Notes: generated by a model from the letters alone, not told the origin. Counted from the first letter of the whole stretch, positions 3,242 through 61,156 are shown. The stretch is DNA of 62,620 nucleotides, filler included, from Malassezia furfur (GCA_052055015.1; 17 parts of 17 records of this genome joined end to end with filler, not necessarily neighbours in it); one strand, 5' to 3'. Translations and numbers: made by a program.

Positions 3242-3646
3242 ATGCTCGCGCTCCGCCGCTCCGCGGGCCTCGCGCGCCGCGCCCTGCACACGACCGCGCG
3301 CCTGCACATCGACCGCCACGCACACGAGGAGCACGAGCGGCCGGGGTACGCGATCCCCACGCCGTTCTGGGAGCGCGCACTCCTCGGCGTCGGCAGCGCC
3401 CTCGGCCTGCTCGTCAACCCGAGCCGCGGCGACCTGCTCTCGGTGCTCACGCAGGTGTCCTCCTTCCCGAACATCGACCAGCTCGTCGAGCAGATGCGCG
3501 CCACGCACGAGGGGCGCCGCCTGCTCGTCGCGCGCCCGTCGATCAACTCGCGCACCGTCGACCTCGAGGCGCTCTGGGCGCTGCCCGACCACACGTTCGG
3601 CAAGGAGTGGGTGCGCTGGCTCCGCGCGAACCGCGTCGGGCCCGAC
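3242..3646 (+). CDS. COQ4: Ubiquinone biosynthesis protein Coq4, truncated by contig end
   Basis: Presequence [18 protein letters not shown], then NPSRGDL...[34 protein letters not shown]. Confidence 0.85.
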
Positions 3647-3746
3647 NNNNNNNNNNNNNNNNNNNNNNNNNNNNNNNNNNNNNNNNNNNNTTAATTAATT
3701 AANNNNNNNNNNNNNNNNNNNNNNNNNNNNNNNNNNNNNNNNNNNN
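3647..3746. other. Artificial contig linker N44-TTAATTAATTAA-N44 (first of 16)
   Basis: Identical 100-nt linkers start at 3647, 7386, 11118, 14848, 18576, 22303, 26021, 29721, 33417, 37096, 40765, 44427, 48088, 51745, 55372 and 58998; the core has stops in all six frames. Confidence 0.99.
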
Positions 3747-4870
3747 GCGAGCGCGGCGGGCTGCCCGTCGGCGTGTCGACGCCGTGGCGGTACGGCTGGA
3801 TGGTGTCGTAGGGGATCTGCGAGAAGAGCACCGAGACGCTCTCGCCGTAGTGCGAGCGCCGGATCGTCTCGGCCAGCAGGTGGCTGATGTCGATCTCCTC
3901 GAGCTTCGGGCAGCGCCGCTTGTTCTCCTCCTGCGGCAGCGTATTGGTGACGATCAGCGCCTCGAGCTCGCTGTTCGCGATACGCTCCAGCGCGGGCGGC
4001 GACAGAATGCCGTGCGTGACGATCGCCAAAACACGCTCCGCGCCGCTCTCGCGCAGCTGCCGCGAGGCGAGCTCGAGTGTGCCGCACGTGTCGGCCATGT
4101 CGTCCACGAGGATCGCGATCTTGTCGCGCGCGTTGCCGACGAGCACCATGCGCGACACCTCGTTGGCCTTCTTGCGCTCCTTGTGGAACAGGGCAAAGTC
4201 CACGCCAAGCTGGTCAGCCAGCGCCGTCGCACTGCGTCAGGGTCGCGACGTACCGTTTCGCGCCGCCCGCATCGGGCGACACAATCACCACACGGCTCGT
4301 GTCGAGCATCTCGCGCACGTACTGCAGCGCCGCAGGCTCCGAGTACAAGTTGTCCACCGGCACGTTGAAGAAGCCCTGGATCTGCGACGCGTGCAGGTCC
4401 ATCGTGATCACATGGTCGCACCCCGCCTGCTCGAGCATGTTGGCAATCAGGCGCGCCGTGATCGGCGCACGGCTCTTGTCCTTCTTGTCCTGCCGCGCAT
4501 AGAAAAAGTGGGGGATCACCGCCGTGACACGCCGCGCACTGGCCGTCTTGCATGCGTTGATCATGATGAGCAGCTCCATGAGGCTCGTGTTCGGCGAAAT
4601 GGCGCTCCCATCTGCACCGTGCGACACACACGACGTGTTGATGATGTACACGTCGTGCTCACGCACCGACTCGCCCATGCGCACGATCGTCTCGCCCGCC
4701 TCGTTCTTGGTCACGGTCGCATTGCCGAGCGGGATGCCAAGCCTGTGTCAGCGCACCGACCTACCGCTTGCACACGAGGTTCGCGAGACCCCGGTGACTC
4801 GTTCCTGTGGTCAGCCGCGCGCTTGCGCGCACGTACCGCTGAACACCTTGATATCCGCCAGCGTCGCCAT
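3747..4870 (-). CDS. PRS: Ribose-phosphate pyrophosphokinase (PRPP synthetase), 4 exons; C-terminus continues on contig 7
   Basis: Introns 4805-4836, 4743-4764 and 4232-4253; motifs [57 protein letters not shown]. Confidence 0.95.
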
Positions 4871-5170: not shown

Positions 5171-5757
5171 TCACGGCCGGCCACGGCCACGGCCACGCAT
5201 CCCGCGGCCACGCCCACGGTCGCCACGGCCCCGTGCGGCCGGCGCATTGGGGTCGCGCTTCGATTTCGGCCGCGGCGCATCGTCGACCAGCAGCGTATCG
5301 AGCGGCAGCGCATCGGGCAGGATCCAGTACCGCGTGTTGTTGCCTCGGATCGAAAGCGTATCCAGCATGATCGGCTCGCGCCCACGCACCGTGAGCTTGA
5401 CGTTTTTGAGGTGGGTATTCATCTGCACATCGACACCTGTATCAGTAGGGAGCGGGCGCGGCGCGCGGCGCGCCGCGCACACTGCGTGCGTGTGCCACTG
5501 TGTGGCACGACATCGCGCCTGTGCTTGCGTGTCCGGCTGCCGCACGACGTGCGCGGCGATGCTGCGCGGCGCACGTCGCACACGCGCATGCGACGCACGA
5601 CGGCGCACGGCGGCGCACGCGCGCGCCCGCTCCGGCGTACGTACCAGTGACCGTCCCATGCACAATCGTCCCGTTCTTCAGCTCGATCGTGACGCTCTCA
5701 TTGTTGAGCTTCATCAAGAAGCTGCGTTAGCGCCCCCACCTACCGAACCAACTTCAT
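5171..5757 (-). CDS. SMD1: snRNP core protein Sm D1, 3 exons
   Basis: Introns 5722-5743 (22 nt) and 5437-5644 (208 nt) give [40 protein letters not shown]...SIRGNNTRY... with an RG tail. Confidence 0.95.
5449..5633 (-). repeat. Perfect 12-bp inverted repeat closing SmD1 intron 2
   Basis: GGAGCGGGCGCG (5449-5460) is the reverse complement of CGCGCCCGCTCC (5622-5633); pairing extends inward with bulges. Confidence 0.85.
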
Positions 5758-5786
5758 CTTGGTCGCAGGAAGACGTCGACGGCCCG

Positions 5787-5796
5787 GTCACGTGAC
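5787..5796. promoter_or_regulatory. Palindromic GTCACGTGAC E-box (Cbf1-type bHLH site) in the SMD1/EXO1 divergent promoter
   Basis: Lies in an 88-nt gap between divergent ATGs; the same core recurs at 8306, 36202, 42479, 51989 and 53846. Confidence 0.6.
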
Positions 5797-5845
5797 AATA
5801 CAGCCGCGCGGGGCTCGACGCGTCGCGAACGCTACGCGTGCCGCG

Positions 5846-7385: not shown

Positions 7386-7485
7386 NNNNNNNNNNNNNNN
7401 NNNNNNNNNNNNNNNNNNNNNNNNNNNNNTTAATTAATTAANNNNNNNNNNNNNNNNNNNNNNNNNNNNNNNNNNNNNNNNNNNN

Positions 7486-11117: not shown

Positions 11118-11338
11118 NNNNNNNNNNNNNNNNNNNNNNNNNNNNNNNNNNNNNNNNNNNNTTAATTAATTAANNNNNNNNNNNNNNNNNNNNNNNNNNN
11201 NNNNNNNNNNNNNNNNNCGTGGCGGGCGGCCCGGCGGGCGGGAAGGTGCCGCGGCGGAAGGAGCCGCACACCGCCCACCCACGACGCGCCTTGGCCCGTA
11301 CCCTCGTACTATAAACATCACACATCTAGTCCGGGTAT

Positions 11339-19925: not shown

Positions 19926-22302
19926 TCACGCGCGACTCGACTCTGGCTTGAGCGGCTTGACCTTGAATTCGGCCAGCATGCAGATATGGCTGCGGGGTTA
20001 GTCGCGCATGCGCTGCGCCATACGTACTCGGACGGGAAGTGGGCGTTGGGGAACCCCACGACGCGCGAGAGGTACGCGGGGTCGACTTCGCCCAGCACCC
20101 CCGTGTTGGCGAGGGTGTTGGACGAGTACCAGATATAGTCAATCACCCCCCGGAAGCCTGGGGTCCAGTTGGTGACGGGTAGTTCGCCAATGTTGCCGTA
20201 CGCGCTGCGCAGCGCGTAGTTGTGATGGAGGCCCTCAGAGGTGTAGGTGCCGTACGTGTGGTCCATAAAGTCGGGGTGGTCCGGCGCCGTGTCGCCGCGG
20301 CTCAGGAACTCGTATACGCCGCTGTCCGGCGTCGAGTTGAAGTCGCCGCAGATCACCATGGGGATCTGCTTGCCGTTGGCGTACTTGGGCGGCACCACGC
20401 CCGGCTCGAGCTGCGTCTGGGTCGGCATGCGCGCAAAGCGGTTGCCGATCGTCTCGAGCTGCTCCATGAGCATTGCGGCCTGCACCAGCTTCACATCACG
20501 GAACTCGGGGTCCCAGTGGACGTGGGCGTTGGCGAGCAGCAGCTTGGCGCCGGTCGCGCGGTGCTCGAGCAGGGCAATCGCCGCGACGTTGTCCTTGGTC
20601 ATGACGCGATTGAAGATGTCCTCCGTCTTTTTAAAGTCGGGGCGCTGCAGCGCGATCTGGTTGAACTCGATCAGCTGCTTATCCACGAGGCGGTACTGGC
20701 GCGTGTTGAAAAAGGTCGCGCACCCGTCGACGTGCTTGCGCTCGTCCTCGCGCATCGTCCGCGCACGTGACTTGGGCCAAAAGAGGCCCTCGTAGTCGCT
20801 CTGCTGCAGCTTGGGCGCAAAGTAGTCTTCGTACTGGCCCATCTCCACCTCTTGCAGGCAGCAAATGTCGGCGTTGTAGCTCATGATCTCTTGCAGGATA
20901 AACTCCTTGCGGTAGTCCCACACGAGCGCCCAGCTCGGCGTGTAGCCGTACATTTGTCGCGTTGCATACTTTTCGCACAGCACGTTGTACGACAGCACGG
21001 CAAACGTTGTGTCCGGCTCGTCGTCGCCCGGGGGCGGCACGTCATGGTCGATCGCGATCCACTCGCGCTCCGGCGGCGGCACCGACACGGGGCAGGAGTC
21101 GCGGAGGAACGCGATCAGCGCCGGGGTCCCCTCGTGCTGCACGAGACTCATGAGGTTCTCTTGCAGCGGGTTGCCCTCGATGCCCAGCATCTCGAGCTGG
21201 TACAGCGTGCCGAGCTCGGGCGGAAGCACAGTGAGGCAGTTGTCGAACAAGAACAGTGCCTTGAGCTCGATCAGCATGCCGAGCTCCGGCGGAAGCATCA
21301 CCAGCTTATTGCTGCTCGCGTCCAGGATGGTCAGGTTGCGCAGCTGCACGATCGCCGGCGAGAGCGTGGTCAGGTTGTTGTGGTTAATAAAGAGCGACGT
21401 GAGGAAAGTGTAGCGGAACACCTCGGCGCCCAAGTTCTTCAGGCTGAGGCCGCCCATGTCGATGATCGACCACGACTGCTCCAACTCGTCCTCGTCGGGC
21501 TTGATCGGCGCAGTGCGCTGCCCGGGCGGCTTCGACGGGCTCGCCATGACGCTTGCATCGTCGCCTGCCCTGCTGGCGTCCGGCTGCAGCGGGAACGACA
21601 GCCCGTTGGCCGCTGCCCCCGCCGGAAGCTGGATCGCCTTTTTGGGGTCCTGCCCAGCGCTCGCCGAGCTCCGTGCGGCAAGCGCGGCGGCGCGCGCGTG
21701 GTGGTGCGGCGCAAAGGACTGCCGCGAGATCTCAGCACAGTACAGTTGCTGCTGCCACTCGGGCGCCGTGCCGACGGCTGCGCTGGGCGTGCTCGTCGTG
21801 CGCGGCTGTGTGCGCGGCGTCGCAGCGGGCGACATGCCAGCCGACATCATGGCAGCCATGTGCGGAGACGACGCCATGGCAGTCGTGTACCCCGGTGACG
21901 ATGGCACGCCGCCGGCGCTCACCGCGTGCCCCAATGACGGGGGCAGCGACGAGAGCGGCGGGGTGTTGGTGTTCTGCGCCAGGTGCGTCTGGCGCGACGG
22001 ATAGCGCGACATCCAATTGATGTTGGCGCTGTCGTAGCGCGCACCGCCGAATTGCGACGCGTGTCCATACGCACCCGCGTTCGCGCCGGGCACCCCGGAC
22101 GACGCGCCGCCGGCCCCGGCCCCAGTGGAGGAGGCAGGCACGGCGCCGGCGCCGCTCAGGACGCCGAGATCGTTGAGTGACACGGTGTTCCCGAGCGAAC
22201 CGAGATGGTGCGACTGGGAGCGTGGGGTGAACGTATTAGACGCGAGTTGTTGCGGGTGGTTGAGGTACACATACGCATTCGACGCCGCGCCGGGCGGGGG
22301 AG
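19926..22302 (-). CDS. CCR4: Ccr4 deadenylase (LRR + EEP nuclease), 5' truncated
   Basis: LRRs, SYNVL, CLQEV, ICGDFNS, IDYIWY; the 38-nt intron 19990-20027 restores the catalytic PSDH and ends the protein at KPESSRA-TGA. Confidence 0.95.
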
Positions 22303-31338: not shown

Positions 31339-33118
31339 CTACGAGGTCTCGTCCTCGACCGCGTCCTTCACCGAAGCCTTGGCGCCCAACGTCGAGGTCG
31401 GCGCGGCGTCCTTGGCCTCCTTCTTCGGCTCGGCCTTCTTCTCAAGAGCGTAGCCGTTCGAGCCGACCTGGATGTTGGAGCCCTGCGAGGGCGCCGTGTA
31501 CGCCGGGGCGCGCCTGTCGTCGAGCACCGTGACGGGCGCAGCCGAGGTGACGGTCGAGGGGATCGCCGGCGCAGCACCGTAGTGGTGCGACACCGTAGGC
31601 TCCTCCATCTCGATCTCGCCCTGCTCGTACTCGTCGTCCTCGATCGAGCTGCCGTCGTCCTCCTCGTCGTCCTCCTCGTCCTCGCTGCGGTAGCCCGCGG
31701 CGCGCACGGCGGCGGGCACGGGGCCCGAGCGGTCCATCTGCTCCGAGGTGGTGAGGTATACCTTGGAGAGCTGCTTGATGTCGTTCCACCACTCCATCAG
31801 CTCGTCGTGGCTGCGCGCGCGGAAGGTGTAGGCGTACTCACGGCCGAGCGAGAAGCCACCCGACTGCGCACCGCCGAGCTTGCGGCCCTCGATGTGGAAC
31901 TTGTGCGTCTGCGCAGCGGCGGTCGACGGCGCACCCAGCGTGCACTCGGGCAGGAAGAGCGACAGGACGGGCGTGGGGTTGCGCGTCAGGTCCGACGACG
32001 CGTGCTCGTGCAGGTAGCCGGCGGGCGTCAGCACGTAGAACGACTCCTTGTACGACTTGGTGAAGCGCTTCTTGCGCTCCAGGATGCCCTGGTGCACGGG
32101 GATCACCGACGGGTCCTCCTTGCCGGGGTAGTCGATCGTCTCCGGGTTGCGCAGCGGCGTGTCGGGGTCGAGCAGGTGGTCCGAGCGCGAGGCGAACGCG
32201 ATCCACTCGGCGTTCGGCTCGAGCGAGCGCATGTGCATGCCGAGGCCGAGCCACGTGTCCTGCACCTGCGCCGACATGCGGCCGCTCCACTCGTCAAAGG
32301 TCTGCCACGCGCTCTGGATCGAGCGGACAATGCCCTCCTCAAAGTGCGCCGAGTTCTGCTGCATAATGATGATGCTCTTCTGCAGCGCGTTCTCCTCGTT
32401 CACCTGGCGCTGGAGCTGCAGCGCAACCGCCTGGTTCGCCGCGTACGGGTCCTCGCGCGCGCTCACGCTCATCGGCGTGTTCTTCAGCAGGGTGATCGAG
32501 CGGGCCAGGTCCGAGATCATCTTGGTCGACAGCTCACGCTCGCGCGCCACCGAGTTGGCGAGCTTGCCGGTGTCCTGCTGGATGTTGCGCAGGTGCGCCT
32601 TGATCTCGGTGCGCAGCTTCTGCAGGTGCTGCACAATCGAGCCCTCGACCGTCTTGGCCAGGTTCGCGTGGTGGTCCGCAATCGTGCGCGTCTTGTCACG
32701 GATGCTGTAGAACACGTCCTGGATACCGTCCTCGCCGAGGAACTGGTTGCCCTGGCGGAACGGCACCTGGATCACACCACCGAGCTTGGCCATCTCCTTG
32801 GCCGTGTTGTACTCAATGTCGGCAATGCCCTCAAAGTACGAGATGAGCATCTTGGTGATGTCCTTCCAGCCTGTGTGTTAGTCTGTCCTCCGCCTCCGCT
32901 GGGAAGGCGGCGCGCGCCCCGCAACCGCACAGCGGCAATCACGACAGCGGCCCCACCCCCCATGCCAACGTACCCGTGAAGCGCTCGATCAGGATGTCCG
33001 ACGGGCGCAGCTCGTTGGGGCCCGTGTTCTTCTTAATCAGCGAAGCATTGCGGCTAGCAATCGTGGACTTGCGACTCGCGGTCGTAGCCCGGGTAAGGGT
33101 CGATTGGGCGTCAGTCAT
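31339..33118 (-). CDS. Slm1/2-like BAR-PH domain protein, 2 exons
   Basis: The 103-nt intron 32871-32973 gives RPSDILIERFTGWKDITKMLISYF; PH domain GILERKKRFTKSYKESFYVLTPAGYLHE...WWNDI. Confidence 0.8.
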
Positions 33119-33516: not shown

Positions 33517-35272
33517 TGTACACGCGCCGCCCGTGCGCCTTGGCGATCTTGATCGCCTCGGGCGCCATGTAGTTGGGCGTGCCCACAATCGCGTCGCGCG
33601 AAATGTGGATCGTGCCGAGCGGGATCTTTTGCGCGATCCCGAAATCAATCAGCTTGAGCCGCTCGCGCACCAGCAGAAAGTTGGCCGGCTTCAGATCGGT
33701 GTGCACCAGATTGCCCTTTTCGTGCACAAAATGCACCGCCTCGAGCATCTGGCGCCAGTACACACAGATCTGCGCGTGCGTCAGTGGGCCGTGCGCCTTG
33801 AGCACCGAGCTGAAATCCATCTCGCCCAACTCGAGGAGCTGTGTCAGCGCGCGCTCGCCACGTACAATCTTGAGCGTGTCCTTGTTGAGCCGGTGGCCAA
33901 AGTAGCGCAGGATGTAGCGCTCGTGCCCCGGCTGCTGCGCAAGCTGCTCAAGGAGCTGCGCCTCTTGGATCAGCTCGTCGCGCGACTCGGGCTCCAGCCG
34001 CCGCAGCGACACCTGCTTCATCGCAAAGTAGCCCTGCCGCGACTCGTCCACCTCCTCCATGCGCACCACCTCGCCGCCCTGCTCGGCCGCAGGGATCGCC
34101 GTGGGGCCACGCACTTGCCAGACGGTCGAGAAGCCGCCCTCGCCGGCCCGCTGCACTTTGAGGAACCGGCATCCACGGAACTGCGTGTGAGCATCCCACA
34201 TACCGTCGTCTCTTTCGCCATCGGCTTTTGGCCGGCACGCTTCGGGGGGGTATACTGTGCACGGCCCTGGCGCTCGGCCTCGACCAGCATCTGGTGCAGG
34301 AAGTCGACCGGCTCGGGCGACGGCGCGCTGCGCTCCGCATCGCGCGCCGGTTTGATGGGCGCCGCTGGCGCCGGCACCGCGGCACTCGGCACATTCGCTA
34401 TCTCGGCCAGCGGCGCACGCTCACGCGGCGGACTGCGCAGCTGCGTGGACGACGACCGCACTGCCCCAGCGGGCGCACGCACGTCGCTTTTCGCCGCAAT
34501 CGAGCTGGAAACGCACGGCGACGAGACACTGCGTGGGTTCGCGTCGAGATCGCGCCGCCCGGGGACGCGCAGCGCACCTTCTTCGCGCGCCGCTGGCACT
34601 TCGTCGGGCCGTGCAGCGCCCGCAGCCGACGCTGGCGGCGCGGGCGGCAGCGGCGGAGAGTGGTCCTGCCGCGCCGCTGCAGCATGGCCCGGCTGGTTCT
34701 CGTCGTCCTCGGCCTCCTCTTCGTCCTGGTATCGAAGTACGCGCCGCGCGGGCACATGGACACTGCCTGTGCGAACGGCCGATCCTGCGTGAGTGGGCGC
34801 ACGTACGTAGTTTCCGCAGGCCTGTGCCGACGCCGCGCGGCCCTGTATGTGCTGTCGCACTGCTGCGCAGCGTGCGCGCCGTTGTGGATGTGTGCGGTGT
34901 GCTGTGCTCGCGCGACTCGGCGTCGGTCCGAAGCGGGCGTGCCGTGGGTGTATTGGGCTCGTCCTGCCCCGCCGCGTACACATGGCTGAGCCGCGGCGGC
35001 GTGGGCAGGGGGCTCGCGTCCGCATCGGTAAGGAGCGCATCGCGAGGCGGTGTCCTGGGCACAGCGCCGACCGCGGTGTCCATAGCGTCCCAATGCGCGG
35101 CCGCTCCACTCGTGTTGATGTGTTGTGTCAGGCAGGGAATTTTGGGCACGCGCTCCGCGCGACACGTGGGCGAGCCTACTGGGTCGACTTCGCAGGGGGG
35201 CTGGATGGGTGCGCGCCTCCTCGCGAGCGAATACCGGCCAAACGCATCGTAAGAGCGTGTATGCGGCACCAT
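33517..35272 (-). CDS. MPS1: Mps1/TTK-family protein kinase, 3' truncated; start uncertain
   Basis: Introns 34785-34806, 34181-34203 and 33839-33865; GEGGFSTV, YWRQMLEAVHFVHE, HTDLKPANFLLV, IDFGIA, RDAIVGTPNYMAPE. Confidence 0.85.
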
Positions 35273-35451: not shown

Positions 35452-36127
35452 CTAATTAAACGGCCCCAAGTAGTCCTCCTTCATGGTCCCAATCGCAAAC
35501 TGTGTGAGCAGCGTATACATACGATTTCGTTGGCGTCCACGCGCGTACCGACGATCCGGATCCGGACTTTGCGTCCCTTGACGATATTCTGTGGTCAGCC
35601 ATGCGCGCGCGCACGTACATCACTGGGCGACACAAATTCCGGCGGGTTCGCGTCCGGCTGGAACTTGTAGTCGATGGGGAGCAGGTGCGACGACACAAAG
35701 ATGCTCAAGGGCCCGACCTCGGCGAAGAAGCCCATTTTGTTGACGTTTGTGACCGATGCGTCCATGACCTCGCCATTGAACTGCGCGTGAGTGCGTGCGA
35801 CGTACCGGCTTCAGCACAATCGCCTGGTATTTGCTGCGGAACTCGGCCAGCCCCGTGCCGGGCATGACGCGGCCCTGCCCGACGTCCATGATCGAGACGA
35901 CCTTGATGATATAGCCCTGCGCGGGTCAGTGGGGTGCAGCATACATATTTGCCCGTGCAGGTGCCCTCGACGTCGTCCTTCAGCTTGCGCGACACTGGGT
36001 GAGCGGGGCCGGCACGTACGGAATTCGATCATCGACGGCCCATAGAACGACGGATGCAGCTCTGTCCGGTGATCGAGGTTTTTCTGTGTGAGATGCGCGG
36101 CACGCGCGCACGTACAAGGAAGAACAT
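35452..36127 (-). CDS. RPB7: RNA polymerase II subunit Rpb7, 7 exons
   Basis: Introns 36084-36115, 35995-36019, 35917-35944, 35781-35805, 35589-35618 and 35500-35522 give MFFLKNL...LHPSFYGP...VEGTCTGKYGYII...KPFNGEV...FAIGTMKEDYLG. Confidence 0.95.
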
Positions 36128-36224: not shown

Positions 36225-37095
36225 ATGGTACGTCGTAGGCGGGGGCTGACCGCAGGGAAACGACGGTGGCTCGATCGCGCGGCGCGACGACCTCGTACGC
36301 ACCAAGGCGTCGGTCGAAACCGCAGATAAGGACGAAGTGCGCCATGCGCTCTGGACGCAGTGCCGCCTGTCCAAGGCGCGGCTCGCCAAGCCCGTCATGG
36401 TCGATCGGCTGGGGCAGCTCTACAACAAGGACGGCGTCATCGAGTACCTGCTGCGCCGCGGCCAGGGCGAGGCGAGCGCGTCGGAGAACCGCGTCGCAGG
36501 ACACCTCAAAGGACTCAAGGTGCGTGCGCACGGCTGACGCAGGACCTCCGCGAAGCGACGCTCACCCCTGCCCCCACGACGCAGGACCGCAGCGACACGG
36601 ACGCATACCCCTTTGTGTGCCCCCTGACGCAGCGCGCGCTCAACGGCAAGTTCCGCGTGGTGTGCTTGTGGCCGTGTGGGTGCGTCCTGAGCGAGTCGGG
36701 CGTGCGCGAGACGACGGGCGTGTCGAAATCGAGTGCCGCGCCGACGTCGCCGTGCCCGGTGTGCAATGTGCCGTTTGCGCATGCGGCGCTCGTCGAGCCC
36801 CACGCCCCGGCAGTCGACAGCGACGTGGTGTGGGTGAACCCGCCGGCGGAGGAGCAGGCGGCGCTGCGCGAGCAGCTCGCCGCGCAGAAAAAGACGAAAC
36901 GCAAAAAAGCGGACGCCGCCGCTGGCGCCGAGAAGCGTGCGCGTGTGCAGGCGCCCACGCTGAACGACGCGGCGCCCGGCGCGTACGCCGCGAACCAGGT
37001 GCGCCGTGCACAGGAGAACGCGGCGCGCAACGCACCGCCGACGCGCGACAGCGAGGCGGTGGCGTCGCTGTACCGCAAGACGCCGTCGAAGCGCG
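36225..37095 (+). CDS. RTF2: Replication termination factor Rtf2, truncated
   Basis: Introns 36228-36255 and 36520-36542 give MGNDGGSI...LGQLYNKDGVIEYLL...HLKGLKDL...FVCPLT...WPCGCV...CPVC. Confidence 0.92.
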
Positions 37096-37195: not shown

Positions 37196-37656
37196 ACAAA
37201 GCGCACGCCCGCGCGCTGCAGGCCCACAAACTCCACCGGGCGCAGCTCGCGCAGGCGTACGGCACGTGGCTCGGCCACGGCGCGCTCAGCCTGCACGTGC
37301 TGCGCCCGGTGGAGTTTGTGGGCCTGCAGCGCGCGGGCGTGCGCTTTGTGCAGCGCCTGCTCATCGCGATGCTCCTCGCGACGCAGACGCGTGCGCCGAT
37401 GCTCACCGACGCCGTGCGGCGCCGCCTCGCACAGCCGCCGACGGCCGCGGACAAGAGCGCCGTGGAGCGCGCCGTGGTGCACGGCACCGCCGGCCACACG
37501 CCGCTCGCGCAGGGCCTGCTGGTGTTCGTGCAGCAGCACGTGCGCAAGCGCGACGTCGCCGCGGTGCTGGGCGCCGACGAGCCCGCGTGTGCGCGCGTGC
37601 AGTGGGCCGCTCGCGTGGCACGCGACACGCTGCGGGTGCATGCGACGGCGGCCTAG
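37196..37656 (+). CDS. C-terminus of an Sgd1/NOM1-like protein
   Basis: LAQAYGTWL...LSLHVLRPVEF...LAQGLLVFV...VQWAARVARDTL resembles the Sgd1 C-terminal region. Confidence 0.5.
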
Positions 37657-42501: not shown

Positions 42502-44426
42502 ATGGCCGACGCCGCGCACGGCGCACGCCGCGCGGCGCGCGCGCCCGGCGGCTCGCAAGCGGGCGAAGTCGAGCACGAGTGTGCTGGAGGTGAGCTGGGC
42601 ACGTCGGTCGACTCGGGCTACGCGTGGGCGGACACGAGGGCGGAGATGGCGGACGAGCCCCTGGGGCCGGCGCCTCTTGTCGACGCGCAGGGGGCCGAGG
42701 ATGCACGCGGGGCCGACGACGCGCACGACGCGCACGACGCGCGCGACGACTCCGCCACGCCTGCCGCATCCACCGCCCCCGCCGCGCCCGCCGGCACCGA
42801 CGTCGACGACGTACCGCACCCGCCGCTCTATCCCGCGCCTCGGCGCCCACCGCAGTTCGCGGCGATGCACCGCCTGCGCTCGCCGTGGAGCGCGAGCAAC
42901 TCGCTCGCGCGCCTCGCGATGCACCGCAGCCAGTCGGGCTACGCGTCGTCGACCGTGTCTGCGCCGCCGTCCGCGCTCGAGGCCGTCGTCGACACCCCCC
43001 CGACGTCCGAGACGCCGAGCGTCCACACCGACGCCGCGGACGCGCGCGACGACGACGCACCCGAACCGATCGCGCGCCCGTTTCTGCACCTCGCGCTGCT
43101 GCGCAAGATCACCGAGGCGTGCATCGACGCGGCGTCGACGGTGCCCGACGGCGCCCACACGGCGCTCGGCACGCCGTGCATGCTGCAGGTGGGCGGCGGC
43201 CTGATTGCCGTCGGCACGACGCTGGGCGCGACGCTCGTGTTCGACCTGTCGCAGCGCCTGCGGTGCGTGTGCCGCGCACGCGCCATCGGTACGTCGCGCC
43301 GCACTCACACAGAACCCACGCACCCGGTCGTGACCGCACTGGCGCTCAGCAGCGACGCCTCGTACGTCGGCGTCGCGCACGCCTCGGGCGACATTTTCCT
43401 GTACGACGTCGCGGACGCCGAGGTGCCGGTGCGCCACGTCGTGCCCGTGCACGCCGCGGACGTCGCGGCGGGGCGCAGCGAGGGGCACCTCGCCCACACC
43501 CCCGTGACGCACCTCGCGTTCGTCGGGCGGCGCAAGACGGCGATCGTCAGCGCCGACACACACGGCCTGTGCTTCTACCACTCACTCGGGCGCGTGCTCG
43601 GCATGGCATCGCACGACACGCTGCGCGTGTACGGGCGGTACCCCGGCGCGAGCGCCGCCGAGCCGCTGCTCGACGTCGCGCCGCTCCCCTGCGGCACGGC
43701 GGCGCACGGCGCAGACGCACACAAGTTTGTCGCGCTGCTTTTGCGCGGCAAGCTGCTGCTCCTCGGCCTCGCGCCCGCCGCGCAGACCTGGTACCGTAGC
43801 CACGCGCCGCCCGGCGCCGACGCCGCCGCACACGACACGGGCGCGCTCGCGTGGTTCCCGGCGACCGAGGAGGCTGGCACGACGCACGCGCCGCAGCTCG
43901 CGTACGCGTTCGGCCGCACGCTCCACATCCTGCGCCTGCGCGCCGTGCGCGTGCGGCCGCGCGCGGGGCGCGCGCCGAGCGAGACGGGCATCGCGATCCA
44001 CGAGACGCACCTCGCCACCGCGCCGCACGCCATCGTGCGCCTGCAGTGGGTGCACCGCGAGCTGCTGCTCGTCGTGACCACCGACGCGTGGCTCCTGTAC
44101 GATGCGCAGCTCCGCGCGTTCTCCGAGTGGCAGCCGCACGACCCGGCCGTCGCGCACCTCGGCGCGGCGCACGCGGCGACGTGGCGCGCGGCGCTGCACG
44201 TGTGGCACAGCAAGGTGTTCTGCCTCGCGTACGGCGACGTGTACGTCGGCGACTTCCTCGCGTGGGACACGCGCCTCGCGCAGCTCGAGCGCGCACACGA
44301 CTACCTCGGCGCACTGCACCTCGGCCTCGCGCTCTACCACGGGCGCGGGCTCGGCTCGGGCATCGGCCTGCCGCGCGCCCCGGCCGAGCAGCGCGCGGCG
44401 ATCGCCGCGCGCCTCGACACGCTGCA
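42502..44426 (+). CDS. VPS8: CORVET subunit Vps8, truncated
   Basis: GLIAVGT...VFDLSQRL, VTALALSSD, FVGRRKTAIVSAD..GLCFYH, RVYGRYP, GALAWFP; probable in-frame intron 43289-43312. Confidence 0.85.
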
Positions 44427-44612: not shown

Positions 44613-45545
44613 ATGTCGGGGTCGTACGACCGAGGTGCGTAATAACGCGTCGAAGTGGATGTGTACTAACTTGCGGTGTAGCGCTCACTGTATTCTCACC
44701 GGATGGTACGTTTTCCAACGCGCGCTCACACCAGGCCATTTGTGCGTTGCCTCTTCTTCTCACCCAGGTTCCAGGTCGATTATGCGCTCGAAGCAGTGCG
44801 CAAGGGCACGTGTGCTGTAGGCATTCGTGGCAAGGATGTGGTGGTGCTGGGCGTGGAGAAGAAGAGCCTGCAGCAGCTGCAGGACCCGCGGACGGTGCGC
44901 AAAACGGCGATGCTGGACGACCATATTTGCCTGGCGTTTGCGGGTCTGAACGCCGATGCGCGCATCCTTATTGACAAGGCGCGGATCGAGTGCCAGTCAC
45001 ACCGGCTGACGGTGGAAGACCCGACGACGGTCGACTTCATCACGCGCTACATTGCCGGGGTGCAGCAAAAATACACACAGTCGGGCGGTATGCGGCCGTT
45101 TGGCATTTCGACGCTCATCATTGGCTTTGACCCGCACGATGATGTGCCGCGCCTGTACCAGACCGAGCCATCCGGGATGTACTCGGCGTGGAAGGCAAAT
45201 GCGATCGGCCGCTCGTCCAAGACCGTGCGCGAGTTCCTCGAGAAGAACTACAAGGACGGCATGTCTCAAGAGGAGACGATCAAGCTGACGGTCAAGAGCC
45301 TGCTGGAGGTGGTGCAGACCGGCGCGAAAAGTACGTGCAGCGAATCTCACACCAGACATCGAAATTGCAGTCATGACGGGCTATGGTCAAGTGAGGGTAG
45401 GTGCGCATGGCTCACCCAGAATCTCGAGTTGTCCGAGATCGAAGAGGTCGTCAAGGTCATCGAGGCGGAGCAGGAGGCCGAGGCCGAGCGTCGCCGTACG
45501 CGCCTTGCGGCCACCGCAAGTGCTGAGGCGTCGATCAATGAGTAG
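44613..45545 (+). CDS. PRE6: 20S proteasome alpha-4 subunit, 6 exons including a 7-nt microexon
   Basis: Introns 44635-44681, 44706-44734, 44742-44767, 45331-45355 and 45397-45419 give [27 protein letters not shown]...[17 protein letters not shown]. Confidence 0.96.
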
Positions 45546-48242: not shown

Positions 48243-51200
48243 GCCGGCACCGAGCCGCCCTGCAGCGCGGCGGCCAGCGCCGAGCGCCGCAGCGGCGTGT
48301 ACACATTCTTGCGCGCCGCGTCGGTCGTGGCGCGGTCGCGCGCCGCGTCGGCGTGCGCAAGGCACGCCGCGTACATCTTTTGCGCGATGGCGACCTGCTC
48401 CTCGTCGTGCACGTCCACCGACACGTCGAGGCACCGCAGCATCGCATTGGTCGCGAGGCCCGTGTTGAGCGCCAACAGCCCCACGCGCCCGATCGGGTTG
48501 TGCGCGACGTCGAGGTGCAGCAGGTGCTTGGCGTCGGGCAGGCACTCGGCGAGCGCCACGGCGCCCTCGGCGGTGAGCTGCGTGTCCGCGAGAAAGACGC
48601 GGCGCAGCTTGGGGTGCACGCCGAGCGCCTCGCGCAGGCGCAGCACGCCCACGAGGTTCGCGCCGCCACACGGGTTGTGGCTCACGTCGAGCGTCTCGAG
48701 CGTGGTGTTGTAGCGCAGCGCATCGGCGAGCAGCGCCAGCGCGGGCGCGTCCAGGTCGTTGTCGCTCACACTCAGCACGCGCAGCGTCGCGTTGCGGCGC
48801 ACCGCCGCGGCAAACGGCGCCATGTACGTGCGCAGCGAGTTGCTCTTCACGTCGAGCGTCTGCAGCGCACTGCAGTGCGGCAGGCGCGACAGCTTCGCGC
48901 CGTACGCGAGCGCCTCGCGCTGCAGCGCGAGCCGCCGCTCCTCGTGCGCCTGCGTGCGCCGCACGGGCGTGCCGTGCAGCAGCGCGCGCGCCACCGCCGC
49001 GTCCGACGCGCCGTACAGCTCATGCGTCGGCTCGCTCATGCGCTGCCACTGCAGCTCGGCGGCCTCGACGTACGGCTGCGCGCGGTCGTCAATGTCGCGC
49101 AGAAGCAGCGCGAGCGCCCCGACCGCCTGCCCGCCGATGCGGTTGCGCCGCAGCGACACGTGCCGGATGCGCGACGTGCGCACCGCCGCGGCCACCGCCT
49201 CGAGCGACGCGGCACGCAGGCCGCACTGCTCCATGCGCACCGTCTGCAGACTCGCGGGGCGCGCAAAGATCGCACGCACCGCCGACTTCGACAGCACGTT
49301 CTCCGACACGTCCATGTTCTCCACCACCCCGGCGCCAATCAGGCGGCCGAGCGCGTCCCAGCCGCGCGCACGCACCAGCGGGTTGCACGCCACGCTCAGC
49401 ACGCGCACACTCGGCTCGACACGCAGCGCACGCAGCACCGCCTCCGCACCCGCGTCGCTCAGATTGCAGTCCTCGAGCACCAGCCGCGTGAGGCCCATCG
49501 GCGCGCCCAGCATGTCCGCCAGCGGCAGCGCCGCATGCTGCAGATCGATCGTCGTCAGGTCGAGCGCACGCGCGTCCGTCCACGTCGCCGCCTGCTCGAG
49601 CGTCGCAAGCACCGCAGCGTGCGGCACCTCTTCGCGCGCACGGCAGCACATCCTATACAATCCTTGCAGCTCGCTCGGCGTCCACGCCCGCCCACGCAGC
49701 CGCGCCATGCGCTGCGCACACTCTTGCTCGACACGCGCACGCGTCGCCTGCTCGGTATGCGGCGCCTCGGCGTGCGCAATGGGGTACGTGTGCACAAGGT
49801 CCTCGACGCGGAAGTGCACGTGCGACCGCCGCCGCTGCTCGCGCGCACCGTCGGGCGCCGGCGTCCAGCTGCCCGACGTCCGCCGCAGTCGTGGAGCTCA
49901 GCCGACGCAGCACACCGGACAGCATCGACATGGCGCCCCCCGTCGACATGGGCATGCGGATCGGTAGACTCGGTAGGTTTTGCTGTGCCAGCCGGCTGTT
50001 GAGGCTGTACACGAGCTCCTTGCCGAGCCACAGCGCATTGTTGCTCTCGGACGGCGGCTCGCGCAGGATGCCTCGGCTGGGGCGCGGGCGGCTCGACGAG
50101 GGAGGGAAGCGCGGCGGGTCGGCCGCGGCGCTTGGGTCGGCGCTTGGGTCGGCGCTCGGCTGGGCGCTCGGTTTGGCGCTCGGTTCGGCGCTCGGATCGG
50201 CACTCCGTGCGGCGCTCCGTGCGGCGCTTGATTCAGCGCTCGTCGCGGCGCTTGGTTCGGTACTCGGTTGGGTGCTTGGTTCGGCGCTCGGTTTGGCGCT
50301 CGGTGCGGCGCTCGGTTCGACGCTCGGTTTGGCGCTCGGTTTGGCGCTCGATTCTGCGCTCGATTCTGCGCTCGGTTCTGCGCTCGATTCTGCACTCGAT
50401 TCTGCGCTCGGTTTGGCGCTCGATTCTGTGCTCGATTCTGCGCTCCGTGCGGCGCTCGATTCTGCGCTCGGTTTGGCGCTCGGCGCAGCAGCGGGCTCGT
50501 CCGCGCCCGCATCGGAGCGATCCGCGGCCTGCTCCGTGCCAACGGCCGAGGGTCCTGCATCGGCACGATCCGCGGCACGATCCGAGGCGCTCCCCCGATC
50601 GGCCGCGGACCGCGCAGCATCGGATCGTGCCGAGGCGCCCTGTGCGTCGCCCGCGGCCGCGGTCGCGGCACCCGCCCCANNNNNNNNNNGCGCTCGATTC
50701 TGCGCTCGGTTCTGCGCTCGATTCTGCACTCGATTCTGCGCTCGGTTTGGCGCTCGATTCTGTGCTCGATTCTGCGCTCCGTGCGGCGCTCGATTCTGCG
50801 CTCGGTTTGGCGCTCGGCGCAGCAGCGGGCTCGTCCGCGCCCGCATCGGAGCGATCCGCGGCCTGCTCCGTGCCAACGGCCGAGGGTCCTGCATCGGCAC
50901 GATCCGCGGCACGATCCGAGGCGCTCCCCCGATCGGCCGCGGACCGCGCAGCATCGGATCGTGCCGAGGCGCCCTGTGCGTCGCCCGCGGCCGCGGTCGC
51001 GGCACCCGCCCCACCGGCAGGCCCCTCGTTGGCTCGCGCCTCCCCCGCACCGGATTCTTCTTGCTGGCTTGGTAGCCCCTCGTCCCGCGCGTCGTCCTCG
51101 CTGTTGGGATCGCGGGGTGCCTCGGATGTTGATGCTGCGGATGCGGCAGACGCGGGCGAGTCGGACGGCCCCATGGGCGACGCAGGCGCCGCGCCGTCCA

Positions 51201-55471: not shown

Positions 55472-55991
55472 CGTGAGGCGCGCCCAGTTGTGCGGGCACG
55501 CCGCCTGGCGCACCGGGCACTGGCGCCGTGCCCGGTGGCATGCTCTGCAGCGGCGGCTGTGCGCCCTGCGCGTGCGGCATGCCCTGCGCGTGGTTCATCT
55601 GGGGCGGTGCCTGCTGTGCGGGTGCGGGCTGCGCCGCGGCGGCGCCCTGCGCCTGGCGACGCTTGTGTTCTGCGTCGTGGACCGCAAGCACGATGCGCGA
55701 GCCGGACTGCAGGCCGTACTCGTACAGCGGCACGCGATCGTCCTTGAGCACCATGCCGCGGTACAGAATCTTGACCTGCTGCACGGGCAGCGAAAAGACC
55801 TGCGCGAGTTCCTGCCGCAGATCGCGGAGAAGGATGCCACCCTGTACCCGCGAGAGCGAGACCTGGTATCTGGATCAGCGCGCGCGCACGTACAGCTGCC
55901 GCTCATACACCACTTCGACCCATTCCACATCGGACCAGCCGTGCGCACTGTTATTATTCCAACGGTTCCACTGATTCGAGAACCAAGACAT
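55472..55991 (-). CDS. Ubiquitin-like domain protein (BAG co-chaperone-like), truncated
   Basis: The 24-nt intron 55870-55893 gives MSWFSNQW...LRDLRQEL...VKILYRGMVLKDDRVPLYEYGLQSGSRIVL; no BAG domain is visible. Confidence 0.7.
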
Positions 55992-59097: not shown

Positions 59098-61156
59098 CGG
59101 GCGCCGCAAACGGGTCGTCGCCCAGCAGGTCGCCGAGCGCGCCGAGCTGCTGTGCGGCGCCGTGCGCCTGCGTGGCGGCGGCCGCGTCGTCGTCGCCGAG
59201 GTCGAGCAGGTTCTCGCTCTTTTCGCCCTGCGCGACGGTGGCGATCGCGCGCGTGCGCGCGGCCTCGTCGCTGTTGACCGCGAGCGCGGCCTGGAGGCTC
59301 TGTGCGCTCATGCGCCCGTGCCCGATGAACGAGGACGCCGGCTTGTGGTACACGCTCGAGAGCAGCGACAGCTCGTGGATGAGCTCGTTGAGCAGCGCGC
59401 GCGACACGGACGTGGGCGGCAGCGTGATGGGCGGCGGCGGCGCGAGCACGACGCTGCGGGCCGCGTCGCTGTCCGCGCTCGAGAGCAGGCGCCAGTAGAT
59501 GTACGCGCGGTCGCGCAGGTCGGCGTTGTCGCACTCGCGCGTCGCCTTGGTGAGCACGTCCTGGACGATGCGCTGCGCGAGCTCCGAGTCGGGCTTCTTG
59601 AGGAAGAGCTTGACGATCGCGGTGAGCGTCTGGAACTGCACCGCAGGCACGTCGTCGGTGAACTCGGCGAGGCACGCCGCGAGCTGCTCCTCGGCGTTGC
59701 TGATGCGCTCGGCGTACTCGCCGATGATCCAGATGAGCGACGCCTTGGCCTCCGGCTCGTCGATCGCGTCGAGGTTCGCACACAGCGCGGGGATGATGCG
59801 CGTGTACTGGTTGGGGTACTTGCGGAAGATGTCCTTCACGACGACGGTCGCCTCCTGCACGACGTAGCTCACGCGCGAGTTGATCAGCTCGAGCAGCACG
59901 TACACGCAGCGCTCCGCGGCCGCCTCGATCGCGATCGCGCACTGGCCGATCGCGCGGATGGCGCGGCGCACAAAGTCGACGTCGATCTCGGCCGCGTACT
60001 CTTTGAGCTCGCTGAGGAGCATGTCGACGTTGTTCTCCTTGGCGAGCTTGATCATCACGTCGACCTTCTCTGCCTTGACGTACGGCGGGTCGTTGTACTT
60101 GCAGAAGAAGATGCGCAGCTCGTTCGACAGAATCTCGGGGTACTTTTGGAGGATGAGGTTGATGTTGCGCAGCGCGACCCACTGCACCTCGGGCTCGGAC
60201 GAGACGAGCGTCACGAGCGGCGGCGCCATCTTGCGCACGAGCTGCTGCACAAACTCGGGCTTGTGCGTCGCCTCCATGTGCACCAGCACGACCTTGACCG
60301 CGCCCAGCACCACGGCGCCGTTCGCGTGCTGGAACTGCGGCATGATGCGCTCGCAGATGTGCTCGGCCTCGCGCTCGTCCGCGCTGCGGTACGTGCCAAG
60401 CGTGTTGAGGATCACGATGCGGCCCCACTCGGTGCACTCGTTGAGCGCCACGAGCAGCTTCATCAGCACGTCCGAGTCCAGCACAAACACGGGCGAGCCG
60501 CCGATGTGCACGTCCTGCGCGGCCTCGTGGATGTCGTTCAGCGCCGCGACCGCGTTCGCGACGACCATTGGGTTGTTGTCGGCGATCATCGCCTTGACGC
60601 GGTCGACGAACCCGCGCTCGAGCGCCAGCTCCGGCTTCAGGTTGAAGAGCTTCGCGACACAGATCACCGCCGTCTTGCGCACGTACGGGTTGTCGTCGTC
60701 CAGGCACCGCTCCAGCGGGTCCGGCAGGTAGTCGATGATCTTTTCCGCACGCAGGCAGCCCATCGTGCGGATCGCCAGCGCGCGGATGAGCGCATTGGGG
60801 TCCTCGGTGTCTTTGACAAACGTGTTCACGGCGAGGATCACAAGCTCCGGCTGCGTCTTCGCGTAGTTCATCAGGTAGAGGTACACGAGCTTCTTCTGCT
60901 CGAGGTCCTCGGTCTGCATGTTTTTGAGCACGTCGGGGAAGAGCGCCGAGACGTCCTTGCCGACGGTCATGTTGGCGATCACGCGCTTGATGCCATCCTT
61001 GCGCTTGTCGCGGTACTCGCTGTTCACTGGGGTCAGTGGGGAAAAAAAAACATACGGTCTGCACGCAGCTCAAAGGTCTCGCCTGGCGTTAGTGGCGCGT
61101 GCGCGCGCGCGCGACGTACCTTTGCGCTGCGCCCCGAAGAACCCCGGTCGGCTCAT
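59098..61156 (-). CDS. APL2: AP-1 complex beta-adaptin, 3' truncated
   Basis: Introns 61083-61119 and 61027-61055 give [50 protein letters not shown]; also [13 protein letters not shown]. Confidence 0.9.

Follow-up and report, generated by a model that had tools for sequence, protein, structure and literature searches.

A 208-nucleotide SmD1 intron in Malassezia: a tiny intron possibly enlarged by a G+C-rich insert that is predicted to fold into one hairpin

The SmD1 gene and its second intron

The gene encoding the Sm protein SmD1 occupies positions 5757-5171, on the minus strand, of a 62,620-nucleotide (nt) stretch of DNA from Malassezia furfur (GCA_052055015.1). This stretch was analysed as a whole and is referred to here as the window (62.6 kb, approximately 67% G+C). 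SmD1 is interrupted by two introns, the first of 22 nt and the second, which is the subject of this report, of 208 nt. Intron borders, here and throughout, were set by reading frame and homology, and the splicing described is predicted on that basis. The gene and the elements of its second intron are as follows.

5757-5744, minus strand: SmD1 exon 1 (14 nt), with the start codon ATG at 5757-5755; the encoded MKLVR runs into exon 2 as in the SmD1 proteins P0125 and P0129
5743-5722, minus strand: SmD1 intron 1 (22 nt), GTAGGT...CTAACGCAG
5721-5645, minus strand: SmD1 exon 2 (77 nt), ending in phase 1 after ...HGTVTG
5644-5437, minus strand: SmD1 intron 2 (208 nt, 75.5% G+C), GTACGT...TACTGATACAG, with a TACTGAT branch motif and an ACAG acceptor
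5441-5447, minus strand: branch-site motif TACTGAT; the A at 5442 is presumed to be the branch point and precedes the final base of the intron by 5 nt
5436-5171, minus strand: SmD1 exon 3 with the stop codon; its translation matches the LSM domain (Pfam)
5622-5633, minus strand: 5' arm of a perfect 12-base-pair (bp) stem, intron positions 12-23, pairing with 5449-5460 at 100% over 12 nt
5449-5460, minus strand: 3' arm of the perfect 12-bp stem, intron positions 185-196
5602-5633, minus strand: 5' side of the extended basal helix (31 bp with small bulges) of the minimum free energy (MFE) structure, intron positions 12-43
5449-5482, minus strand: 3' side of the extended basal helix, intron positions 163-196, which holds a (GCGGCGC)x4 micro-repeat

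The protein junction between exons 2 and 3 is unbroken in P0125 and P0129, both of which are named Malassezia SmD1 proteins, and the phase-1 site of intron 2 is common to the three most closely related contigs found in a metagenome scan (L001, L002 and L003, described below). Read-through from exon 2 meets a TGA inside the branch motif and 208 nt is not a multiple of three; intron 2 must therefore be removed for SmD1. Intron 2 fits the U2-type tiny-intron class of Malassezia, with a GTACGT donor and a TACTGAT-ACAG 3' end as in the other 41 introns accepted in the window, and its branch spacing agrees with the CTGAC/CTCAC/CTAAC + N + CAG pattern of the tiny introns.

A long hairpin in intron 2

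A preliminary description of this DNA had placed a perfect 12-bp stem in the 208-nt intron, with 11 and 12 unpaired nt outside it, and these coordinates proved to be exact. The unpaired segments are GTACGTACGCC on the donor side (11 nt) and CTACTGATACAG on the acceptor side (12 nt). In the MFE fold, nearly the entire insert between them forms one branched hairpin with a basal helix of 31 bp, and the arms of this hairpin carry micro-tandem repeats, namely (GCGGCGC)x4 and (CGCACGACGG)x2.6. The 12-bp stem stops 1 nt short of TACTGAT and 7 nt before the presumed branch A, with linkers that total approximately 18 nt. In the folded model, the donor and the presumed branch A would be separated by approximately 19 backbone steps, which is within the range of the introns of 21-29 nt.

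The helix itself is unusual compared to controls. For the controls, the interior was shuffled so as to preserve its dinucleotides, while the donor hexamer and the tail from branch to acceptor were neither changed nor allowed to pair. A perfect terminal stem of at least 12 bp was found in 2 of 200 such shuffles and an outer helix of at least 31 bp in 4 of 200. The MFE of intron 2 was -135.1 kcal/mol, compared to -119.0 +/- 4.0 for the dinucleotide shuffles, and a separate fold test gave z = -3.28, with equally good folding in 1 of 200 shuffles. With same-length random intergenic or genic segments of the window as the interior, the MFE was -86 +/- 15 and none of the 100 segments in either set matched the observed value.

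Longer introns of the window as a set

Introns across the window were identified with a codon model trained on long open reading frames (ORFs) and a small splice-aware gene finder, followed by curation by eye. The resulting list is our own, made from sequence signals and coding context, and covers the coding-sequence introns of this one window, introns in untranslated regions being invisible to the approach. A total of 42 introns were accepted, all with a GT[AG]NG[TC] donor and a CT/TTNAY branch motif shortly before YAG. Most (34) measure 21-29 nt, and the other eight measure 30, 32, 32, 37, 38, 47, 103 and 208 nt. In addition to SmD1 intron 2, the longer introns are the following.

35589-35618, minus strand: RPB7 intron (30 nt), with a (GC)5 run
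36084-36115, minus strand: RPB7 intron 1 (32 nt), TGCGCG...CGCGCA
4805-4836, minus strand: intron 1 of PRS (ribose-phosphate pyrophosphokinase, gene identified by Pfam; 32 nt), GCGCGC-AA-GCGCGC
61083-61119, minus strand: intron 1 of a beta-adaptin gene (APL2-like, adaptin by Pfam; 37 nt), with a 13-nt alternating GC run
19990-20027, minus strand: CCR4 intron (gene identified by Pfam; 38 nt), GCGCA-GCGCA-TGCGC
44635-44681, plus strand: intron of a proteasome alpha-subunit gene (Pfam; 47 nt), with a 44% G+C interior and a 7-bp hairpin
32871-32973, minus strand: intron of an Slm1-like gene (BAR_4 and PH, Pfam; 103 nt), the second-longest found

The gene is tentatively named RPB7 for its Rpb7-type N-terminus. 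The 103-nt intron is supported by the junction ERFTG/WKD, which is unbroken in P0002 and orthologs; the Slm1-like protein itself is 100% identical over 260 amino acids to a protein named Malassezia brasiliensis, with other Malassezia species next. The threonine synthase gene of the window was assigned to Basidiomycota in a protein atlas.

A hairpin was predicted in all eight introns of at least 30 nt, while 31 of the 34 shorter introns had no structure, the longest unstructured intron being 29 nt. Folded end-to-end paths were 18-32 for the longer introns, compared to 17-28 for the shorter ones. The 47-nt intron, which is the sole A+T-richer one among the longer introns, had an MFE of -8.8 compared to -2.7 for its shuffles, and none of 300 shuffles was as stable. 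Against random intergenic inserts, the two 32-nt introns were more stable (p = 0.005 and 0.010) and the 37- and 38-nt introns were marginal (0.085 and 0.060). Combined over the eight longer introns by Fisher's method, stability exceeded that of dinucleotide shuffles with p = 0.0065 and that of intergenic inserts with p = 2.4e-5; when the 208-nt intron was left out, the two values were 0.043 and 2e-4, respectively. The extra sequence of the longer introns is thus self-complementary in aggregate, although the effect is modest and much of the signal comes from composition.

SmD1 in related genomes

A metagenome scan with SmD1 exon 3 yielded 80 loci. The three closest showed 83-88% identity, lie on contigs of 32-486 kb and have the same gene structure; orthologous introns were compared within +/-1.5 kb of SmD1. 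The SmD1 introns of these three relatives are as follows.

L003 (G+C 0.65): intron 2 of 23 nt, intron 1 of 23 nt
L001 (G+C 0.60): intron 2 of 28 nt, intron 1 of 27 nt
L002 (G+C 0.52): intron 2 of 57 nt, intron 1 of 41 nt

When the hairpin is taken out of the intron 2 found here, a 23-nt core intron of normal form is left, and the ortholog in L003 is exactly 23 nt. A similar relation was observed for PRS intron 1, which measures 32 nt with its palindrome in the window and 24 nt without a palindrome in L003.

A further relative is represented by P0122, a gene call from short public contigs that is 99% identical to the window in exon 3. Upstream of exon 3, its ORF stays open for 34 codons within the 3' part of the intron, and the translation of this part shows weak collinear similarity to the intron 2 described here, with a different branch region. 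Judged from this open frame, at least one very close relative would also have a long (at least 102 nt) G+C-rich intron 2.

Origin and possible role of the insert

The reading that we favour, although tentatively, is that SmD1 intron 2 is a tiny intron with a recent G+C-rich insert, and that looping-out of this insert is permissive for splicing; we consider that this has a substantial chance of being correct. An ordinary 23-nt Malassezia-type intron, composed of GTACGTACGCC and CTACTGATACAG, would recently have gained approximately 185 nt that are rich in G+C, low in complexity and complementary to themselves. Within the pre-mRNA, this insert would fold into one long hairpin with a basal helix of 12 perfect bp, or of 31 bp with small bulges. 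This hairpin would start 11 nt past the donor and end 1 nt before the branch motif, and the insert would consequently be looped out. Looping would put the donor approximately 19 backbone steps from the branch A, which is the geometry of introns of 21-29 nt, and a spliceosome adapted to tiny introns could then still bring 5' splice site and branch site together in spite of the excess length of the intron. We infer the formation of the hairpin in vivo, the need of splicing for it and the recent age of the insert. On the best reading of the data, the hairpin is neither a conserved regulatory device nor evidence of an exact 23-nt ruler.

A broader proposal is that the Malassezia spliceosome pairs donor and branch site only over an effective distance of approximately 15-25 nt, and that introns longer than approximately 30 nt survive genome-wide only by means of a stable hairpin, with intron growth channelled through (GC)n or palindromic insertions. 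We regard this as rather unlikely.

A number of results weigh against the favoured reading. Although the 23 unpaired nt do equal the common intron size, as the preliminary description had pointed out, shuffled interiors are equally short. The MFE end-to-end path of intron 2 is 24, while 500 shuffles had a median of 23 and 59.6% of them a path no longer than the observed one; the mean path over Boltzmann samples was 23.9, compared to 24.2 for shuffled interiors, with 44.5% of 200 shuffles as short or shorter. Random genomic inserts likewise bring the intron ends together (median 26; pD 0.44-0.47). It is a general rule that the two ends of a long RNA come near each other on folding, and the outcome of the shuffles agrees with it. 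G+C-rich shuffles thus reproduce both the placement and the effective length of the intron 2 stem, an outcome that the preliminary description had named as a refutation, whereas the 12-bp or 31-bp helix is rare in them. The effective length of approximately 23 nt is without statistical weight.

The same is seen for the longer introns taken one by one. The CCR4, RPB7, PRS and APL2 introns that had been put forward as similar cases are present with the motifs quoted for them; however, their hairpins are individually no better than dinucleotide shuffles. For the 30-, 32-, 32-, 37- and 38-nt introns the p values for stability were 0.70, 0.16, 0.31, 0.79 and 0.19, and those for path were 0.39-0.84. 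The 103-nt intron was also no more stable than its shuffles (pE 0.33), and its path of 32 was longer than in 94% of them. Over all eight longer introns, the Fisher p for effective distance against dinucleotide shuffles was 0.89, and the fixed donor-to-branch ruler that had been proposed is unproven.

Further points come from the relatives. The 185-nt insert and its stem are missing at the same site in L001, L002 and L003; given the 23, 28 and 57 nt found there, the insert is therefore probably recent and the stem is not conserved in them. The 57-nt intron 2 of L002 is no more stable than shuffles (pE 0.86), and the 41-nt intron of the same contig is essentially unstructured, with a path of 34. 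These poorly structured introns of L002 argue against a strict genus-wide ruler. The hairpins predicted in all eight longer introns and their aggregate stability above controls speak for the earlier claim that long introns are tolerated only when looped out; the 41-nt intron of L002 and the 103-nt intron of the window speak against it.

Composition also has to be considered. Alternating GC runs of at least 7 nt are approximately threefold enriched in introns (10 in 1354 nt, compared to 2.4-2.9 per kb elsewhere; Poisson p = 0.0024), and three of these ten runs lie where there is nothing to shorten, in introns of 24, 27 and 29 nt. Since GC runs are enriched in introns of normal size as well, the hairpins may be a by-product of intron growth. 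Intron length and interior G+C content are uncorrelated (rho = -0.02). Intronic GC runs often directly follow the GTACGT donor (e.g., 55878-55887, 35603-35612 and 61101-61113), and may either be slippage-prone points from which introns grow or belong to a donor context longer than the hexamer.

These observations bear on a neutral explanation, which we consider a realistic possibility. Here, the insert would have grown out of G+C-rich DNA of low complexity, such as (GC)n and short GTGCGC-like repeats, by slippage or by expansion of palindromes. Any sequence of this sort would form hairpins in silico, introns of 100-200 nt would be spliced whether folded or not, and the hairpin would play no part in splicing. 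The equal effective lengths obtained with shuffled and random genomic interiors, the micro-tandem repeats in the hairpin arms, the GC runs in introns of all sizes, the 103-nt intron and the weakly structured introns of L002 are all consistent with this, as is the finding that perfect inverted repeats of at least 12 nt are not rare in the window (23 with loops up to 300 nt). Neutral expansion would less readily account for a basal helix that surpasses 98-99% of shuffles in length and perfection and that frames the core of the intron, coming as close as 1 nt to the branch motif. Taken together, the longer introns also beat dinucleotide shuffles and, by far, random genomic inserts, as shown by the combined values above. 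Moreover, none of the eight introns of at least 30 nt is free of a hairpin; roughly estimated, a set of random inserts matched in length would form hairpins throughout in about 1 case in 8. Hairpin potential may be a by-product of intron lengthening; equally, only insertions of this kind may survive.

It is improbable that the insert is a foldback or miniature inverted-repeat mobile element of 185 nt that entered a tiny intron, with the stem as its terminal inverted repeat. Such an element would explain the perfect 12-bp inverted repeats exactly at the ends of the insert, its absence from three relatives and the restoration of a 23-nt intron by its removal. However, no target-site duplication is visible at the junctions on reading the sequence, and blastn detected no copy of it elsewhere in the window or among the 80 loci (best other match 18 nt in the window, and 20 nt at 90% in the loci). 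The interior consists of low-complexity micro-repeats with no distinct element.

The preliminary description had also raised autoregulation, in which Sm proteins or small nuclear ribonucleoproteins would control SmD1 splicing through the hairpin. The intron does sit in an Sm gene, and yeast ribosomal-protein genes are described as autoregulated via intron structures. Nevertheless, intron 2 has no T run of at least three and no match to the Sm site (purine-A-U4-6-G-purine), no Rfam family reaches threshold in the intron, and the element is missing in the three related contigs, which together make autoregulation very improbable. Scarcely credible is a last explanation, that intron 2 is long because it hosts a small non-coding RNA (a small nucleolar RNA, snoRNA, or a hairpin RNA): long fungal introns are generally known to host snoRNAs often, but an Rfam scan of 5300-5800 gave two sub-threshold hits at chance level (mir-6579, 20.1 bits with a gathering threshold of 47, and sR55, 16.2 with 35), no C/D or H/ACA boxes were seen on reading the intron, for which no dedicated scan was made, and the insert is not conserved in relatives.

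Comparison with known systems

Shortening of introns by stems, which the preliminary description had mentioned for Giardia, is published for Giardia lamblia and also for Spironucleus spp. and Trichomonas vaginalis; in the accessible passages of that study, these organisms have short introns and a few longer ones with extended stem-loops, which on folding bring the splice sites about as close together as they are in the short ones (Hudson et al. 2019, PMC6679479). For T. vaginalis, these passages describe introns that measure either approximately 25 nt or more than 50 nt, the latter with stem-loops by which the ends are again a short distance apart in space. The window resembles these genomes in having mostly short introns and a few longer ones (34 of 42 and 8, respectively, in this one window), and a branch site near the 3' splice site is likewise described for them in the same passages (PMC6679479). 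The longer introns of the window are predicted to fold, with paths close to those of the short introns, but shuffled or random interiors give the same paths. The passages mention no shuffle controls (PMC6679479), whereas the controls used here show that a match in length alone is uninformative. Other differences concern the organisms: the yeast considered here is a basidiomycete and has far more introns, while the metamonads have a handful of introns and a reduced spliceosome. In addition, the short class seen here, 21-29 nt, is not strictly uniform, and no trans-spliced introns were seen in the window.

The hairpin can also be compared to the zipper stems of Saccharomyces cerevisiae introns. 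According to the accessible text on these stems (PMC12350175; 10.1101/2025.03.14.643126), those of RPS17B and RPL7B are above shuffles in stability, poorly conserved in sequence and present in scattered orthologs only, which is a likeness to SmD1 intron 2. As far as the zipper-stem definition is given in that text (PMC12350175), intron 2 agrees with it in the stem (12 perfect bp or 31 bp, the lengths rarely reached in shuffles) and in the donor-side spacing, with 11 unpaired nt before the stem. It departs from the definition in linker and branch spacing, with a stem that runs up to the branch motif and only about 18 nt of linker in all. Judged by the same text, such a geometry would be sterically impossible for the yeast A complex (PMC12350175); it agrees with that of the 21-nt introns of this yeast itself. 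The geometry would reflect a different steric setting in a spliceosome that removes 21-nt introns.

Within the genus, 5350 introns have been reported for M. sympodialis, with a mean of 30 bp and RNA-seq support for 99% (PMC5389616). In the accessible text of that paper, these introns belong to the same class as those of the window: the donors are GT[AG]NGT, CAG comes a few nt after the branch motif, and the most frequent length is between 20 and 29 nt. The terms "secondary structure" and "hairpin" occur 0 times in it (PMC5389616). No description of long introns and their folding in Malassezia was found in the literature searched, subscription journals being outside its coverage, which agrees with the novelty that had been suggested for this lineage. 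The principle is already known from other systems; the lineage appears to be new for it.

Other features of the window

The RPB7-like gene (35500-36115, minus strand) contains six introns, of 32, 25, 28, 25, 30 and 23 nt, in approximately 700 nt, and is unusually dense in introns compared to the other genes of the window. The proteasome alpha-subunit gene contains a 7-nt micro-exon, GCCATTT, at 44735-44741 (plus strand), between introns of 29 nt (44706-44734) and 26 nt (44742-44767). This micro-exon is required to read a 16-residue, presumably conserved motif of the proteasome alpha-subunit.

Some of the short introns have uncertain borders or context. One donor may be at 36228 or 36235, one 3' end may be at 55870 or 55863, the intron at 43289-43312 is in frame, and the introns at 866-894 and 34785-34806 have weak coding context. 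Several other candidates were rejected. A 44-nt candidate at 3407-3450 sits within a continuous ORF, candidates of 304, 431, 510 and 539 nt are joining artefacts, and a 108-nt call in APL2 was false and was dropped on inspection by eye. Looser branch rules added 25 donor/acceptor pairs, most of which share one end with a listed intron while the rest are coding-like; none was convincing.

The window also contains 17 masked sites, spaced approximately every 3.7 kb (3647-3746, 7386-7485, 11118-11217 and onwards). Each consists of N44 - TTAATTAATTAA - N44, in which the 12-nt spacer carries stops in six frames. These blocks are likely to be an artefact of the preparation of the window; they break several ORFs and make false palindromes in repeat searches. 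A perfect 51-bp inverted repeat (37196-37246 and 37299-37349, with a 52-nt loop) abuts a masked block and lies where coding-like ORFs are present on both strands; it could be tied to the masking junction. A minisatellite at 50126-51013 is built of a 12-nt unit, CGGCGCTCGGTT / GCGCTCGATTCT, with approximately 30 copies in 50126-50483 and approximately 11 more in 50690-50816. A 334-nt higher-order unit occurs twice in it at 100% identity, in a stretch of approximately 1.1 kb without a clear coding frame.

Implications

In G+C-rich RNA, any sequence yields an effective length equal to the normal intron size, and only stability, conservation or mutagenesis can carry a claim such as the one considered here. 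If fold-back is not needed for splicing, SmD1 intron 2 would represent an ordinary lineage-specific expansion of low-complexity DNA within an intron. If, on the other hand, the limit on effective distance were true, Malassezia would provide a fungal counterpart, independently evolved, of the rule described for Giardia and Trichomonas, and SmD1 intron 2, at approximately eight times the modal size, would be its extreme case. This idea has so far rested mainly on a handful of introns in protists that are hard to manipulate. Should fold-back be needed, donor-to-branch measurement and intron growth under such a limit could be studied well in Malassezia, a fungus that is genetically tractable and has thousands of tiny introns validated by RNA-seq.

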